From a virus (lineage: Duplodnaviria; Heunggongvirae; Uroviricota; Caudoviricetes): a DNA stretch of 42,832 nt. The first letter of the stretch is position 1. Every line of letters starts with the position of its first letter. A program made the translations under genes and the position numbers. The notes beneath the pieces were generated by a model. That model was not told where the DNA came from. It did not search any database and saw nothing but the letters and a program-made list of their open reading frames with translations. Shown here piece after piece: positions 7,745 through 12,683 of the stretch. The stretch lies in the IMG/VR virus record IMGVR_UViG_2541047913_000006, one strand, 5' to 3'.

Positions 7745-8164
7745 TTAAGAGGCTTTTTGTTTTTTCTTTCGTGCTAACTCTTCGTAAATTGCATTGTACT
7801 TCTGTTTTTTCTCCTCAAGAGTTTTTAAAAGTTCATCTGTCTCACTGTCAGGGAGCTCGTCCAGAAGGTCAATGATGATTTTTTGTCTTGGATTTAACTC
7901 CTGATAGAAACGTATCTGTCCACTTTCTTCTGTATCCTCTCCCAAAAGATAGGTTGGTGTTGTTCCAATGAGTGTTGCTAATTCCCTTAATTTCTCTCGG
8001 CGAGGAATTGTTTCACCATTAAACCATTTGCTAACCGCTTTTGGTGTTAATTTCATTCGACGGGCAATTTCTGCCTGCCTTCCATGTTGTTCATAACCAG
8101 CGTTTTCACAGGCTAGCGCAAGCCTACTGGCGAACTCTTTACGCGCTTTATCTTCATGAACCAT
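7745..8164 (-). CDS. racR: Prophage repressor, HTH XRE family (RacR-like)
   Basis: 139-aa ORF with N-terminal HTH (GRQAEIARRMKLTPKAVSKWFNGE); divergent from ydaS/ydaT, typical immunity-region layout. Confidence 0.8.
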   Translation of the reverse strand: MVHEDKARKEFASRLALACENAGYEQHGRQAEIARRMKLTPKAVSKWFNGETIPRREKLRELATLIGTTPTYLLGEDTEESGQIRFYQELNPRQKIIIDLLDELPDSETDELLKTLEEKKQKYNAIYEELARKKKQKAS

Positions 8165-8243
8165 AAGTTCAATGATATTCGCTCTTGAATGTACTGTCAG
8201 TTCTGTTATAGCATGTACTCAAAGTTCACATTGTGAGGGTGAT
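8165..8243. promoter_or_regulatory. Divergent promoter/operator region between racR and ydaS
   Basis: 79-bp intergenic region with symmetric motif arrangement: AAGTTCA (8165-8171), ATGTACT (8189-8195), ATGTACT (8213-8219), AAGTTCA (8222-8228). Confidence 0.5.
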
Positions 8244-8498
8244 ATGAACCAGAAAACACTTGAAGATGTAATCAAAACTGTTCGCGTTTCTGTTGTGGCC
8301 GACGTTTGTGGTGTCAGCCAAAGAGCAATCTACAAATGGATGGATAACGGAAAATTGCCTCGCACAGAATATACCGGCGAAACAAATTACGCTGAAAAAA
8401 TCGCTCATGCATCAAACGGATTATTTTCTGCCGATGCAATTTTAACTATTGGCAGAAATAAAACTACTACGAAAAAGCTGATGGGAGTTGATTCATGA
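8244..8498 (+). CDS. ydaS: Cro-like HTH protein YdaS
   Basis: HTH (VSQRAIYKWMDNGKLP); start placed at ATG 8244 (RBS GAGGGTGA upstream) rather than track start 8172, which would sit 7 bp from the racR start. Confidence 0.65.
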   Translation: MNQKTLEDVIKTVRVSVVADVCGVSQRAIYKWMDNGKLPRTEYTGETNYAEKIAHASNGLFSADAILTIGRNKTTTKKLMGVDS

Positions 8499-8917
8499 AA
8501 ATCAAGCATGAGCACATCGAATCAGTGTTGTTAGCCCTGGCAGCCGAAAAAGGGCAGGCGTGGGTCGCTAACGCAATTACTGAAGAATATCTGCGCCAGG
8601 GGGGCGGCGAATTGCCCCTGGTACCAGGCAAGGACTGGAACAATCAGCAGAATATCTATCATCGTTGGTTGAAAGGTGAAACGAATGCGCAAAGGGAAAA
8701 AATTCAGAAACTGATCCCTGCGGTTCTGGCAATTCTTCCTCGCGAGCTGCGTCACCGACTCTGCATCTTCGATACCCTGGAACGCCGTGCATTACTGGCG
8801 GCACAGGATGCACTGAGTACGGCAATTGATGCGCATGATGATGCAGTCCAGGCCGTTTACCGTAAAGCACATTTCAGCGGCGGCGGTTCTCCTAGCGATT
8901 CTGTCGTAGTGCATTGA
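8495..8917 (+). CDS. ydaT: YdaT, CII-like regulator/toxin of Rac (140 aa)
   Basis: MKIKHEHIESVLLALAAEKGQAWV...; ATGA overlap with ydaS stop, indicating translational coupling. Confidence 0.8.
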   Translation: MKIKHEHIESVLLALAAEKGQAWVANAITEEYLRQGGGELPLVPGKDWNNQQNIYHRWLKGETNAQREKIQKLIPAVLAILPRELRHRLCIFDTLERRALLAAQDALSTAIDAHDDAVQAVYRKAHFSGGGSPSDSVVVH

Positions 8918-8994
8918 TTGAAATTAATCGTACCGAACTGTTTTGTTCGGTATCAGTTAAATGTAACGCTGCGAGCGTTACAAGGTGAAAACAA

Positions 8995-9783
8995 ATGGCT
9001 TCAAACTGGATAAAGCTCGAAGTTATTACGCCGGATAAGCCGGAAATATTCAGGCTTGCTGAGATTCTGAATATTGATCCAGATGCCGCATTAGGGAAAG
9101 TCATTCGCTTCTGGGCATGGGCGGATCAACAAATGATAGACGGTAACGCAGAGTGTAACGCTCGCGGCGTTACAAAAAGTGCAATAGATCGCATCACTTT
9201 TATGGCTGGTTTTGCTGATGCGTTAATTCAGGTTGGATGGCTGGTCGAAACTAATGGTGTGTTGTCGCTTCCTAACTTTGAGCGCCATAACGGGAAAAGC
9301 TCTAAAAAACGGGCGGTTACAAACGAGAGAGTAACAAAAATACGAGAACTGAAACGAAAAGGTAACGCTGCCAGCGTTACAAAAACGGATCAAAAAGCGT
9401 TACCAGAGGAAGAGAAAGAGGAAGATATAAATACTTATCTCCCCCTAAATCCCCCTCGCCAAAAACGAGCGTCTAAAAAATTCGAACCGGAGGCTATCGA
9501 GCTGCCTGACTGGTTGCCGGAAACACTCTGGCATGAGTGGGTTCAGTTCAGGCAGGCATTGCGAAAACCGATTCGAACGGAGCAGGGCGCTAACGGGGCG
9601 ATACGGGAGCTGGAAAAATTCCGCCAGCAGGGTTTTTCACCTGAGCAGGTGATTCGACACAGCATCGCCAACGAATACCAGGGCTTGTTCGCGCCGAAAG
9701 GTGTTCGACCTGAGACGTTACTCCGACAGGTTAACACCGTCTCGTTACCGGATAGTGCGATCCCGCCAGGCTTCAGGGGGTAA
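8995..9783 (+). CDS. ydaU: Phage replication initiation protein (YdaU-like, O-like)
   Basis: 262-aa ORF directly upstream of the DnaC-like loader; contains and is preceded by 19-bp palindromic repeats (candidate origin/iterons). Confidence 0.65.
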   Translation: MASNWIKLEVITPDKPEIFRLAEILNIDPDAALGKVIRFWAWADQQMIDGNAECNARGVTKSAIDRITFMAGFADALIQVGWLVETNGVLSLPNFERHNGKSSKKRAVTNERVTKIRELKRKGNAASVTKTDQKALPEEEKEEDINTYLPLNPPRQKRASKKFEPEAIELPDWLPETLWHEWVQFRQALRKPIRTEQGANGAIRELEKFRQQGFSPEQVIRHSIANEYQGLFAPKGVRPETLLRQVNTVSLPDSAIPPGFRG

Positions 9784-9789
9784 CTGACC

Positions 9790-10536
9790 ATGAAAAATAT
9801 TGCGACAGGCGACGTTCTTGAACGTATCCGCAGACTGGCCCCGTCACATGTAACCGCGCCATTCAAGACGGTAGCGGAGTGGCGCGAGTGGCAACTTTCC
9901 GAAGGCCAGAAACGTTGTGAGGAGATCAACCGTCAGAATCGTCAGTTGCGGGTGGAAAAAATTCTGAATCGCTCTGGCATCCAGCCATTGCACCGCAAAT
10001 GCTCGTTTTCGAATTACCAGGTGCAGAACGAAGGGCAGCGATACGCGTTGAGTCAGGCGAAATCCATCGCTGATGAACTGATGACCGGGTGTACAAATTT
10101 TGCGTTCAGCGGAAAACCTGGTACCGGGAAGAACCACTTAGCGGCAGCTATCGGGAATCGCCTGCTGAAAGACGGTCAGACAGTGATTGTGGTTACCGTG
10201 GCTGATGTTATGAGTGCCCTGCACGCCAGCTATGACGACGGGCAGTCAGGCGAAAAATTTTTGCGGGAACTGTGCGAAGTGGATCTGCTGGTTCTTGATG
10301 AAATTGGCATTCAGCGCGAGACGAAAAACGAGCAGGTGGTACTGCACCAGATTGTTGATCGCCGGACAGCGTCGATGCGCAGCGTGGGGATGCTGACAAA
10401 CCTGAACTATGAGGCCATGAAAACATTGCTTGGCGAGCGGATTATGGATCGCATGACCATGAACGGCGGGCGATGGGTGAATTTCAACTGGGAGAGCTGG
10501 CGTCCGAATGTCGTCCAGCCAGGAATTGCGAAGTAA
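9790..10536 (+). CDS. ydaV: DnaC/IstB-like helicase loader ATPase (YdaV)
   Basis: Walker [16 protein letters not shown] and Walker [10 protein letters not shown]; 248 aa. Confidence 0.85.
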
Positions 10537-10558
10537 TTTTTACCGGGAGAAAAATTTA

Positions 10559-11308
10559 ATGGAGACTGTTTTTGACGCACTGAAAGCAATGGGAAAAGCC
10601 ACATCCATAGAACTTGCTGCGCGACTTGATATCAGTCGTGAAGCAGTGCTGAACGAACTATGGGAACTGAAAAAAGCTGGTTTCGTTGATAAAAGCGCGT
10701 ACACCTGGCGTGTGGCTGATAACAACGTTCAGCAGGAACAGCCAATGCAGGCAGAACTGCCGGAAGAAACCACCACGGCAACTGTAGTGAAAATCTCAGA
10801 GTGCGATTTAACCGCGACGATTGAACAACGCGGACCACAAACGGCGGATGAACTGGCTACGCTGTTCGGTACAACATCCCGCAAAGTTGCTTCAACGCTG
10901 GCAATGGCAATCAGCAAAGGACGCCTGATTCGCGTAAACCAGAACGGTAAATTTCGTTACTGCATACCGGGCGATAATTTACCAGCAGAGCCGAAAGCTG
11001 CATCGGTAACGGAAACTGATTTTAAAGCCTTTCCTCAGCCAGCAGGTGTTGCGTTACCGGTACAGAAAGATGCAACACAGGAAGATATTAAAACAGAAAC
11101 TGTAGCGGACATTGTGCAGTCGCTGCCATCGTTTACTGCAACGCGAGAAGATGATTTGATTTTGCCATCGCTGCATATGGCAAACCGCGAACTGCGTAGG
11201 GCGAAGAATCATGTCCAGAAGTGGGAGCGAGTCTGCGCCGCGCTGCGGGAGCTGAACAAGCACTGGGATATTGTCCATAAAGTTATTGCAGCAGGTATGG
11301 AGAAATAA
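10559..11308 (+). CDS. ydaW: Winged-helix protein, YdaW-like (full length)
   Basis: Start at [30 protein letters not shown] (RBS GGGAGA upstream); by recollection ydaW is a truncated pseudogene in K-12, but here it is intact. Confidence 0.55.
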
Positions 11309-11561: not shown

Positions 11562-12164
11562 ATGAAAGGTAATATTCTTGGGGATATCCGAGCTGAACAT
11601 GACGAAAAGATGTTGGAAGCTTCATTTTGGCAAACAACTGATTATAAAGCTCTTCTCGAATCCTACGATCGATGCATCATTGTTGGCCGCAGAGGAACAG
11701 GAAAAAGTGCTCTGGTGCATATGCTTTCCAAACATTGGCATGCTAAGCCAAAAACCTATGTGATGACTATTAGTCCGGTTGAAGAACAAATTATTGGATT
11801 AAGGGATGTTATTTCTTTATTTGGTGAAAATTACTTACATATAAAAGCCGGTAGCAAGTTAGCATGGCGATATGCTATTTATATGGAGCTGCTTTCTGAG
11901 ATCGCAAGTCATTACAAGATGAAAAACGATCTTGACTACAAAAGTGTAGAGTCGCATTTATTATCTTGGGGACCGAAGAGACAAAATATAAGTAGCAAAA
12001 TAAGAAAAAAATTGAACGCTATTCTCGATGATAACAAAAATATAAAACCAGCTACAAGAATAGCCGAATTATCCGATAAATTTGAACTTGACTTATTGGA
12101 AGAGGTGATAGAAGAAGCAATTTCGAAGTCAAATAATCAATTTGTTATTTTTGCTGATAGGCTT
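11562..12164 (+). pseudogene. P-loop NTPase gene, 3'-truncated by IS1 insertion
   Basis: Walker A CIIVGRRGTGKSALVHML near N-terminus; AT-rich; the reading frame runs into IS1 at 12165, and the last 27 codons of the track ORF (to 12245) are IS1-derived. Confidence 0.6.
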
Positions 12165-12179
12165 GGTAATGACTCCAAC

Positions 12180-12683
12180 TTACTGATAGTGTTTTATGTT
12201 CAGATAATGCCCGATGACCTTGTCATGCAGCTCCACCGATTTTGAGAACGACAGTGACTTCCGTCCCAGCCTTGCCAGATGTTGTCTCAGATTCAGATTA
12301 TGTCGCTCAATGCGCTGAGTGTAACGCTTGCTGATAACGTGCAGCTTTCCCTTCAGGCGTGATTCATACAGCGGCCAGCCATCCGTCATCCATACCACGA
12401 CCTCAAAGGCCGACAGCAGGCTCAGAAGACGCTCCAGTGTGGCCAGAGTGCGTTCACCGAAGACGTGCGCCACAACAGTCCTCCGTATCCTGTCATACGC
12501 GTAAAACAGCCAGCGCTGACGTGATTTAGCACCGACGTAGCCCCACTGTTCGTCCATTTCAGCGCAGACAATCACATCACTGCCCGGTTGTATGCGCGAG
12601 GTTACCGACTGCGGCCTGAGTTTTTTAAGTGACGTAAAACCGTGTTGAGGCCAACGCCCATAATGCGTGCACTGGCGCGACAT
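12180..12683 (-). CDS. insB: IS1 transposase InsB (167 aa)
   Basis: [64 protein letters not shown]... matches IS1 InsB. Confidence 0.9.

Follow-up and report, generated by a model that had tools for sequence, protein, structure and literature searches.

In iteron plasmids of the RepA/RepE/pi type, a winged-helix initiator acts at an origin whose direct repeats adjoin an AT-rich element for unwinding, and auto-repression works through an inverted repeat of their half-site close to the start of rep; the plasmid iterons are ~17–22 bp long and lie outside the rep gene. In phage lambda, the origin is found midway through the initiator gene O, as a series of initiator-binding sites with an AT-rich tract after them (PMC7466680), and the Rac prophage of Escherichia coli K-12 carries the origin oriJ (PMC3945230). 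Here, we describe a set of repeats with the half-site GTAACG/CGTTAC that lie before and inside the replication initiator gene of a Rac-like prophage, in a 42,832-nt sequence of a Caudoviricetes virus (IMG/VR record IMGVR_UViG_2541047913_000006; 'the window' refers to this whole stretch). These half-sites are likely to be lambda-like origin iterons for the encoded initiator, at which an adjoining polypurine/AT-rich tract would be opened and the helicase loader YdaV recruited with DnaB.

We favour an origin because the repeats are conserved as DNA despite saturated synonymous divergence, change in concert, are inherited together with the N-terminal domain of the initiator, are helically phased and adjoin the polypurine/AT-rich tract. 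The context lends support, as the initiator matches phrog_2509 (4.7e-88; annotated as phage 'replication initiation' in PHROGs) and a gene for a DnaC-like loader lies directly 3′.

The repeat array and its likeness to lambda and plasmid origins

A search for GTAACGC-N5-GCGTTAC with up to two mismatches returned three matches in the window, where chance gives a mean of 0.11 and none of 100 dinucleotide-preserving shuffles reached three. All palindrome coordinates in a first-pass annotation of this DNA were correct, and its spacing of about 200 bp was measured as 192 and 207 bp, start to start, in a direct-repeat search. That annotation described 19-bp palindromes with a 3-nt spacer, which fits copies 1 and 3 (8-bp arms) but not copy 2, which has 7-bp arms only (GTAACGC TCGCG GCGTTAC). 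The 7-mer GCGTTAC/GTAACGC occurs 16 times in the window against 3.8 expected (~4-fold), with eight of the 16 falling inside the 440 bp from 8963 to 9403. The relevant features are as follows.

8963–8981: palindrome 1, GTAACGCTGCGAGCGTTAC; non-coding, 14 nt 5′ of the initiator ATG
8995–9783, + strand: replication initiator, 262 aa; chimeric, its N-terminal domain being winged-helix-like and its C-terminal domain YdaU/DnaT-like
9143–9149, + strand: direct half-site GTAACGC, exact; cluster A, 12 bp before palindrome 2
9155–9173: palindrome 2, GTAACGCTCGCGGCGTTAC; cluster A, coding for the conserved loop C-N-A-R-G-V-T
9313–9336: degenerate half-site-like GCGGTTAC and GTAACA; weak, inside the conserved peptide RAVTNERVTK
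9362–9380: palindrome 3, GTAACGCTGCCAGCGTTAC; part of cluster B, within the DNA that codes for the linker
9397–9403, − strand: inverted half-site GCGTTAC, exact; the final site of cluster B
9405–9425, + strand: polypurine tract AGAGGAAGAGAAAGAGGAAGA, starting 1 nt past the last half-site; candidate unwinding element
9425–9457: AT-rich ATATAAATACTTATC followed by CTCCCCCTAAATCCCCCTC; common to K-12 ydaU and the place of a mosaic joint

As the first-pass annotation had it, the first copy lies just 5′ of the start, ending 14 nt before the ATG at 8995. Its partial copies fared unequally: the single half-sites at 9143–9149 and 9397–9403 are exact and are also kept in distant relatives, whereas those at 9313–9320 and 9331–9336 are degenerate, an exact CGTTAC standing at the equivalent place only in loci L088 and L091 among the relatives examined. 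The functional unit is a 6–7-bp half-site in phased direct and inverted arrays, and not just the three 19-bp palindromes.

The arrangement is reminiscent of the lambda origin in several respects: repeated candidate initiator sites occur within the initiator coding sequence (three palindromes and two exact single half-sites in the window); a polypurine/AT-rich tract, the candidate for unwinding, adjoins them (purine run at 9405–9425; G+C fraction 0.325 at 9400–9439); sites lie in the region coding for the linker between the predicted DNA-binding N-terminal part and the predicted loader-recruiting C-terminal part; the helicase-loader gene follows immediately 3′; and joints of interphage recombination fall at the putative origin. 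It differs from lambda in that the 6–7-bp half-sites are mixed direct and inverted copies at 11–13 bp rather than four to six tandem iterons, in that there are two or three clusters ~200 bp apart with one of them in the region coding for the DNA-binding domain, in that a polypurine tract conserved across phyla abuts the last site, and in that the loader is DnaC-like and not P. Nor does the protein match the Pfam family of lambda O. Pfam and NCBIfam searches with the initiator returned no family for the N-terminal domain and no Pfam match at E ≤ 0.01 for the protein, and the N-terminal domain together with 28 homologues matched no Pfam family at E ≤ 1, that of lambda O (Phage_rep_O) included. 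A PDB sequence search gave only DnaT-like matches, to the C-terminal parts of relatives. The AlphaFold model of the N-terminal domain (mean predicted local distance difference test score 73) shows helices followed by a beta-hairpin, with a tentative likeness to winged-helix DNA binders.

Compared with the iteron plasmids, the window protein has no detectable sequence similarity or strong fold similarity to their initiators, and the array differs in mixing direct and inverted half-sites inside the gene. A search of a plasmid collection returned only two matches, both phage-like circular sequences and neither an experimentally defined replicon. These plasmid-typed circles, from Pusillimonas sp. 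T7-7 (L159, 41 kb) and E. coli (L160, pE16EC1016-8), carry the initiator family among phage-type genes and may be extrachromosomal phage genomes that replicate from such an origin.

We infer initiator binding, unwinding and helicase loading from the sequence, as follows. The iterons would form three groups, one upstream (8963–8981), one in the N-domain coding region (9143–9173) and one in the linker-coding region (9362–9403). The winged-helix-like N-terminal domain of the encoded initiator would bind the half-sites, as dimers on inverted pairs and side by side on direct copies, one helical turn apart (11–13 bp), and a nucleoprotein complex resembling the lambda 'O-some' would then assemble. 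This complex would open the adjoining polypurine/AT-rich tract (9405–9440), and the YdaU/DnaT-like C-terminal domain would recruit the DnaC-like YdaV with the host DnaB helicase. The non-coding upstream palindrome would probably let the initiator limit its own expression.

Conservation and concerted change of the half-sites

The same 6-bp half-sites were found at the same two in-gene places in ~130 related loci ranging from Enterobacterales to Planctomycetota and Akkermansia, and phages epsilon15, CP2 and TL-2011b share this two-place layout. In a genome survey with a single representative per species, the N-terminal domain was encoded at 71 loci, in Enterobacterales and other Pseudomonadota, in Planctomycetota, in Verrucomicrobiota (Akkermansia among them) and in others. 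Within these, GTAACG/CGTTAC reaches a density of 6.8 per kb in the interval −100 to +500 of the gene versus 0.36 per kb in the flanks, and the copies occupy fixed gene positions, cluster A near 148/161 (148+/161−) and cluster B near 345–405.

Cluster A is nearly always written with the codons GGT AAC GCT nnn AGC GTT ACA, even in genomes of 60–68 % GC. We compared codon usage at these positions in 56 sequences of <90 % identity with the usage of the same genes as background, and found GGT in 41/53 (background 27 %), AAC in 42/42 (69 %), AGC for 28/28 serines (22 %), GTT in 43/52 (32 %) and GCT in 30/41 (24 %), with Fisher p values of 6e-7 to 3e-17 that carry no correction for phylogeny. At the 40–70 % protein identity of these sequences, synonymous sites should be saturated. 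The residue before Val in the loop is S, G, C or R, always with an NGC codon. Of the 56 non-redundant homologues, 39 have cluster B, whose sites fall in each of the three reading frames; one and the same palindrome is read as VTPTALQ in the E. coli prophage type L001 (phage TL-2011b) and as GNAASVTK in the window. In a set of 47 unique close relatives, variation is concentrated at the centres of the palindromes, and the 6-bp GTAACG/CGTTAC cores are invariant except for one sequence each at 9168 and 9403. Selection on the half-sites therefore acts at the level of DNA and not of protein, given the fixed synonymous codons, the use of three frames, the other frame in L001, the non-coding copies and the invariant cores. 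A scan of relatives for conservation despite synonymous variation, the check put forward in the first-pass annotation, thus found half-sites at fixed positions and synonymous codons fixed.

Whole arrays have switched sequence together, to GTCACG, GTGACG, GTCACA, GTAGAC, TGTCGC, GTGGCG or GTCCGC, with the layout unchanged. Loci in which the loop reads G-H-A instead of G-N-A have GTCACG/CGTGAC at every half-site, including up to four direct copies at 11-bp spacing that have no possible pairing partner; unpaired direct half-sites switch along with the palindromes in L118 (four in a row), L219 (five) and L183 (many). The change to GTCACG arose at least twice, since the closest protein to that of L115 is of the GTAACG type. 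A separate, independent collection of viral contigs reproduced the association of loop and site and contributed GTGACG, GTCACA, GTAGAC, TGTCGC and GTGGCG in the same layout. Site class tracks the lineage of the N-terminal domain and not the host taxon, the neighbouring genes, the C-terminal domain or the loader. The residue encoded across the third base of the site (Asn AAC, His CAC or Asp GAC) changes along with it, though not strictly, and the linker peptides also vary by half-site class (SRxxRDxxVT in GTCACG loci). Residue 55 was the sole column separating the GTAACG and GTCACG classes in the first set of loci. We rejected it as a strict determinant of specificity, as GTAACG also occurs in loci with Gln, and GTCACG in loci with Val, Thr or Ser; its identity simply results from the overlap of the site with the codon.

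The arrays also share a grammar. Direct neighbours are spaced at 11–12 bp and inverted pairs at 13 bp, and the usual order is direct copies, an inverted pair, one or two more inverted copies and then C(C/T)AGAGAAGAGAAGAG; the string 'CGTTAC C(A/T)AGAG...' recurs in most cluster B arrays. Cluster B has at least three sites in 39/56 loci, a purine run of at least 14 nt occurs in 39/56 and usually starts 1–2 nt past the last half-site, and the two features coincide in 33 of the 56 non-redundant loci; in 145 kb of flanking DNA there are only 15 such runs. The window conforms to this layout, with cluster A at 9143–9173, cluster B at 9362–9403 and the tract at 9405–9425, and the G+C fraction at 9400–9439 (0.325) is the minimum within the initiator gene. 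The polypurine tract lies ~300–450 nt into the homologous genes (L161–L240, L084–L154), is usually (GAGAA)n read as REEKRREE and sometimes GAGGA-type, and differs little between phyla or between half-site classes, of which there are at least eight; the adjacent linker peptide is for the most part a translation of DNA sites. Across the AT-rich stretch, an imperfect inverted repeat at 9417–9446 (AGAGGAAGATA...TATCTCCCCCT), terminator-like on the minus strand in a scan, may be relevant to duplex opening.

Salmonella phage epsilon15 (replication initiation protein NP_848250), E. coli phage TL-2011b and Xanthomonas phage CP2 belong to the same N-terminal domain family (tblastn: 32–65 % identity) and have the two-cluster layout ending in CCAGAGAAGAGAAGAG, TL-2011b and CP2 with GTAACG. 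Epsilon15 differs in its half-sites (GTCCGC/GCGGAC), in having the first cluster earlier in the gene and in a C-terminal domain that is DnaT-like (PF17948) and not YdaU-like. Eight of its nine GTCCGC copies fall in the two in-gene clusters (L156, 1555–1606 and 1834–1874), the second of which ends at CCAGAGAAGAGAAGAGAAGAGAAGATATT. The epsilon15 record, in the stretch examined, carries no annotated origin.

The initiator gene itself is a mosaic. K-12 YdaU aligns only to initiator residues 139–262 (81 % identity), its DUF1376-type N-terminal half giving no alignment with the window protein, and K-12 ydaU DNA matches only 9410–9800 of the window; from ~9410 onward (the AT-rich/CCCCCTAAATCCCCC stretch, the C-terminal domain and ydaV) the DNA identity to K-12 Rac is 88 %. 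Residues 1–145, conversely, are 66 % identical to the initiator of L001/TL-2011b, which has a different C-terminal domain and a lambda-P-type loader. Because K-12 shares the C-terminal part and L001 the N-terminal part, the joint can be placed at residues 139–145 of the protein and, in the DNA, in the polypurine/AT-rich stretch right after the last half-site. The repeats thus travel with the N-terminal domain, and the AT-rich tract, C-terminal domain and loader form a second unit of inheritance; co-inheritance of N-terminal domain and repeats is the pattern expected if that domain reads the repeats. K-12 Rac has no GTAACGC palindromes and carries its own GATGTTCAAACA and inverted TGTTTGAACAT repeats at the equivalent place. 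In K-12 ydaU (L003, 2402–2485), these take the form (A/G)GATGTTCAAACA with inverted TGTTTGAACAT, just 5′ of the AT-rich/CCCCCCCTAAATCCCCC stretch, and are candidate iterons of oriJ. The first-pass suggestion that the array is possibly the Rac origin consequently holds in that the prophage is Rac-like, but these are not the iterons of K-12 Rac, which has another N-terminal domain and other repeats. Its broader proposal, of candidate initiator-binding repeats before and inside the initiator gene as in lambda O, was supported by every comparative test run: sequence comparison shows DNA-level selection, concerted change, co-travel with the N-terminal domain and a purine tract that is usually adjacent.

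Alternative roles for the repeats and upstream elements

If the sites were operators, bound by the initiator or another phage regulator to control transcription or translation of the replication genes, with the origin elsewhere, the position of copy 1 would be explained: it lies 14 nt 5′ of the start codon, beside the ribosome-binding site, and is held there in several Enterobacterales lineages. Plasmid Rep proteins use inverted repeats as auto-repression operators, which we counted in favour of such a role. Most of the sites, however, lie deep in the coding region, in phased multi-copy arrays that end at the polypurine/AT-rich tract, most family members have no upstream copy, no promoter-like sequence was predicted nearby, and the mosaic pattern mirrors the exchange of lambdoid origins; we regard an operator-only role as unlikely. 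We consider it quite unlikely that the palindromes act as hairpins in mRNA or single-stranded DNA (in translation control, RNA stability or priming) and not as duplex protein sites. Each palindrome does fold stably (z-scores −2.1 to −4.7), the symmetric A>C/T>G change retains base pairing and the spacers, which would be loops, vary freely, but the unpaired direct half-sites of L118, L219 and L183 change together with the palindromes, the 11–12-bp phasing suits a duplex face and not stems, and there are more half-sites than possible stems.

Binding by a host factor or by another phage protein is very improbable. The assignment of the binder comes from sequence comparison, and the constancy of the polypurine tract while the half-sites vary could mean that some constant partner reads the tract; against this, the same half-site occurs in hosts of different phyla and different half-sites in closely related hosts, and site class goes with the N-terminal domain and with none of the neighbouring genes, the C-terminal domain or the loader. 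The notion that the repeats are a by-product of a conserved, repeated peptide N-A-x-S-V-T-K, with no role as DNA, draws on the near-invariance of the loop G-N-A-x-x-V-T in the protein alignment and on the recurrence of a similar GNAASVTK in the linker of the window protein. It is scarcely credible and is already contradicted: synonymous codons are fixed far above background and the S, G, C or R before Val is always encoded by NGC, sites occur in three frames and in non-coding DNA, the L001 palindrome encodes a different peptide, and the linker peptides differ by half-site class.

Several points weigh against an origin at this place. Cluster A overlaps the conserved protein loop G-N-A-x-S-V-T, so its conservation could be partly at the protein level, and perfect palindromes can form RNA or single-stranded DNA hairpins whose pairing symmetric change preserves. 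Some members of the family, namely a Verrucomicrobia subgroup, L145 and L148, have no recognisable arrays, and K-12 Rac, although it carries oriJ, is described as replication-defective after excision (PMC11014345). Auto-regulation is the weakest step of the proposed mechanism, because the promoter/terminator scan predicted no sigma-70-like promoter near the upstream palindrome. The Verrucomicrobiota in question (L117, L119, L122–L124, L129, L136, L139 and L141) are without cluster B and the purine tract and keep one half-site ~57 nt 5′ of the gene and one at gene position 161; their origin may be organised differently or located elsewhere.

Palindrome 1 varies only at its centre (8969–8973) among the 47 unique close relatives, GTAACG and the entire right arm being invariant. 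Winslowiella, Serratia and Pantoea (L087, L089, L086 and L091) have the same palindrome 29–56 nt 5′ of the gene, within upstream DNA that is otherwise unrelated, and none was found in L001, L088, L090 or L092. Since it is kept in some Enterobacterales and missing from most of the initiator family, palindrome 1 is an optional addition, for which the simplest roles would be that of a self-limiting operator or that of a third origin cluster. A second palindrome reported by the first-pass annotation lies upstream of it:

8932–8953: hairpin ACCGAAC-TGTTTT-GTTCGGT, between the ydaT stop codon and palindrome 1

The element is present as reported but does not belong to the conserved system. Just one haplotype has it in perfect form among the close relatives, in which the right arm is invariant and the left arm is often GCCGGAT or GCCGGAC; these A>G and C>T changes retain only G.U pairs, on the + strand, and the hairpin was not found upstream of distant homologues. 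It is predicted to fold on either strand and is terminator-like on the minus strand only in the scan, whose terminator-like hairpins were weak, on the minus strand only and no more numerous than in shuffles. With its left arm degraded in most close relatives and the element missing from distant ones, we rejected it as a conserved duplex operator. It is lineage-specific and, judging from these comparisons, probably outside the origin array; a role as an mRNA hairpin is possible, if weakly supported. Overlapping the ydaT stop codon, TTGATT-GAAATT-AATCGT (8914–8931) agrees at 10 of the 12 specified bases with 5′-TTGATTN6AATCAA-3′, the operator reported for the YdaT protein of CP-933P (PMC9986795), and could be a YdaT site at the junction of ydaT and the initiator gene.

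Gene context and wider meaning

The initiator gene is embedded in a gene order shared with K-12 Rac (racR-ydaS-ydaT-ydaU-ydaV-ydaW), with the following neighbours.

7745–8164, − strand: racR-like gene
8172–8498: ydaS-like gene
8495–8917: ydaT-like (cII-like) gene
9790–10536, + strand: ydaV, DnaC-like helicase loader (NCBIfam PRK12377, 7.9e-153; DnaC, 2.3e-92; Pfam IstB_IS21)
10508–11308: ydaW (DUF1627)

The first-pass name 'ydaU' fits the C-terminal half of the initiator only, the N-terminal half being unrelated to K-12 YdaU. An Rfam search over 8500–9900 gave nothing meaningful. Window positions 8400–10600, which extend from the 3′ end of ydaS into the beginning of ydaW, are 99.9 % identical to deposited phage genomes (vB_EcoS-666R9 and others; accession ON470614 among the near-identical phages), and a 901-bp query was found at ≥80 % coverage in 679/5426 complete E. 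coli genomes. Further downstream, a minus-strand open reading frame (ORF; 12180–12683) overlaps the end of a 227-aa plus-strand ORF (11562–12245) that is seemingly cut short. The former looks like the InsB transposase of IS1, and the arrangement suggests a possible IS1 insertion downstream of ydaW.

An iteron origin inside an initiator gene is of a kind already known. The literature searched, which left most subscription journals outside (the oriJ papers among them), held no description of these repeats; nor, it seems, does it give any account of this initiator family, of the grammar of the half-sites, of the conserved purine tract or of how widely the system is spread and how far it has diversified. 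A phmmer search with the N-terminal domain gave 6173 representative clusters at E ≤ 1e-3, protein clusters of the family being counted at 50 % identity. We see an evenly balanced case for the locus being a member of a very large, undescribed origin class in which the array dictates parts of the protein and the tract is perhaps a universal element. That class may comprise more than 6000 protein clusters, defined at 50 % identity, that range from Enterobacterales to Planctomycetota, Verrucomicrobiota and Burkholderiales; its arrays may dictate the G-N-A-x-S-V-T loop and the linkers, VT..ALP or SR..RD..VT followed by REEKRREE; and its 6-bp half-site may have diversified into at least eight specificity classes. 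Because the polypurine tract is nearly constant while the half-sites have diversified, it may serve universally as an element for unwinding or single-strand binding that some conserved part of the initiator recognises.

For annotation, genes labelled 'ydaU' are mosaics whose two halves deserve separate names. The analysis offers a concrete predicted origin map for a common E. coli Rac-like prophage, and for a large initiator family without a Pfam domain that includes epsilon15-, TL-2011b- and CP2-like phages. The natural half-site variants on a constant scaffold are a ready series for studying initiator–origin specificity and the evolution of replicon incompatibility, and an invariant polypurine tract beside variable iterons poses a specific question about duplex opening. 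Putative binding sites that overlap the coding sequence of their own binder would be a clear case of DNA function shaping protein sequence.

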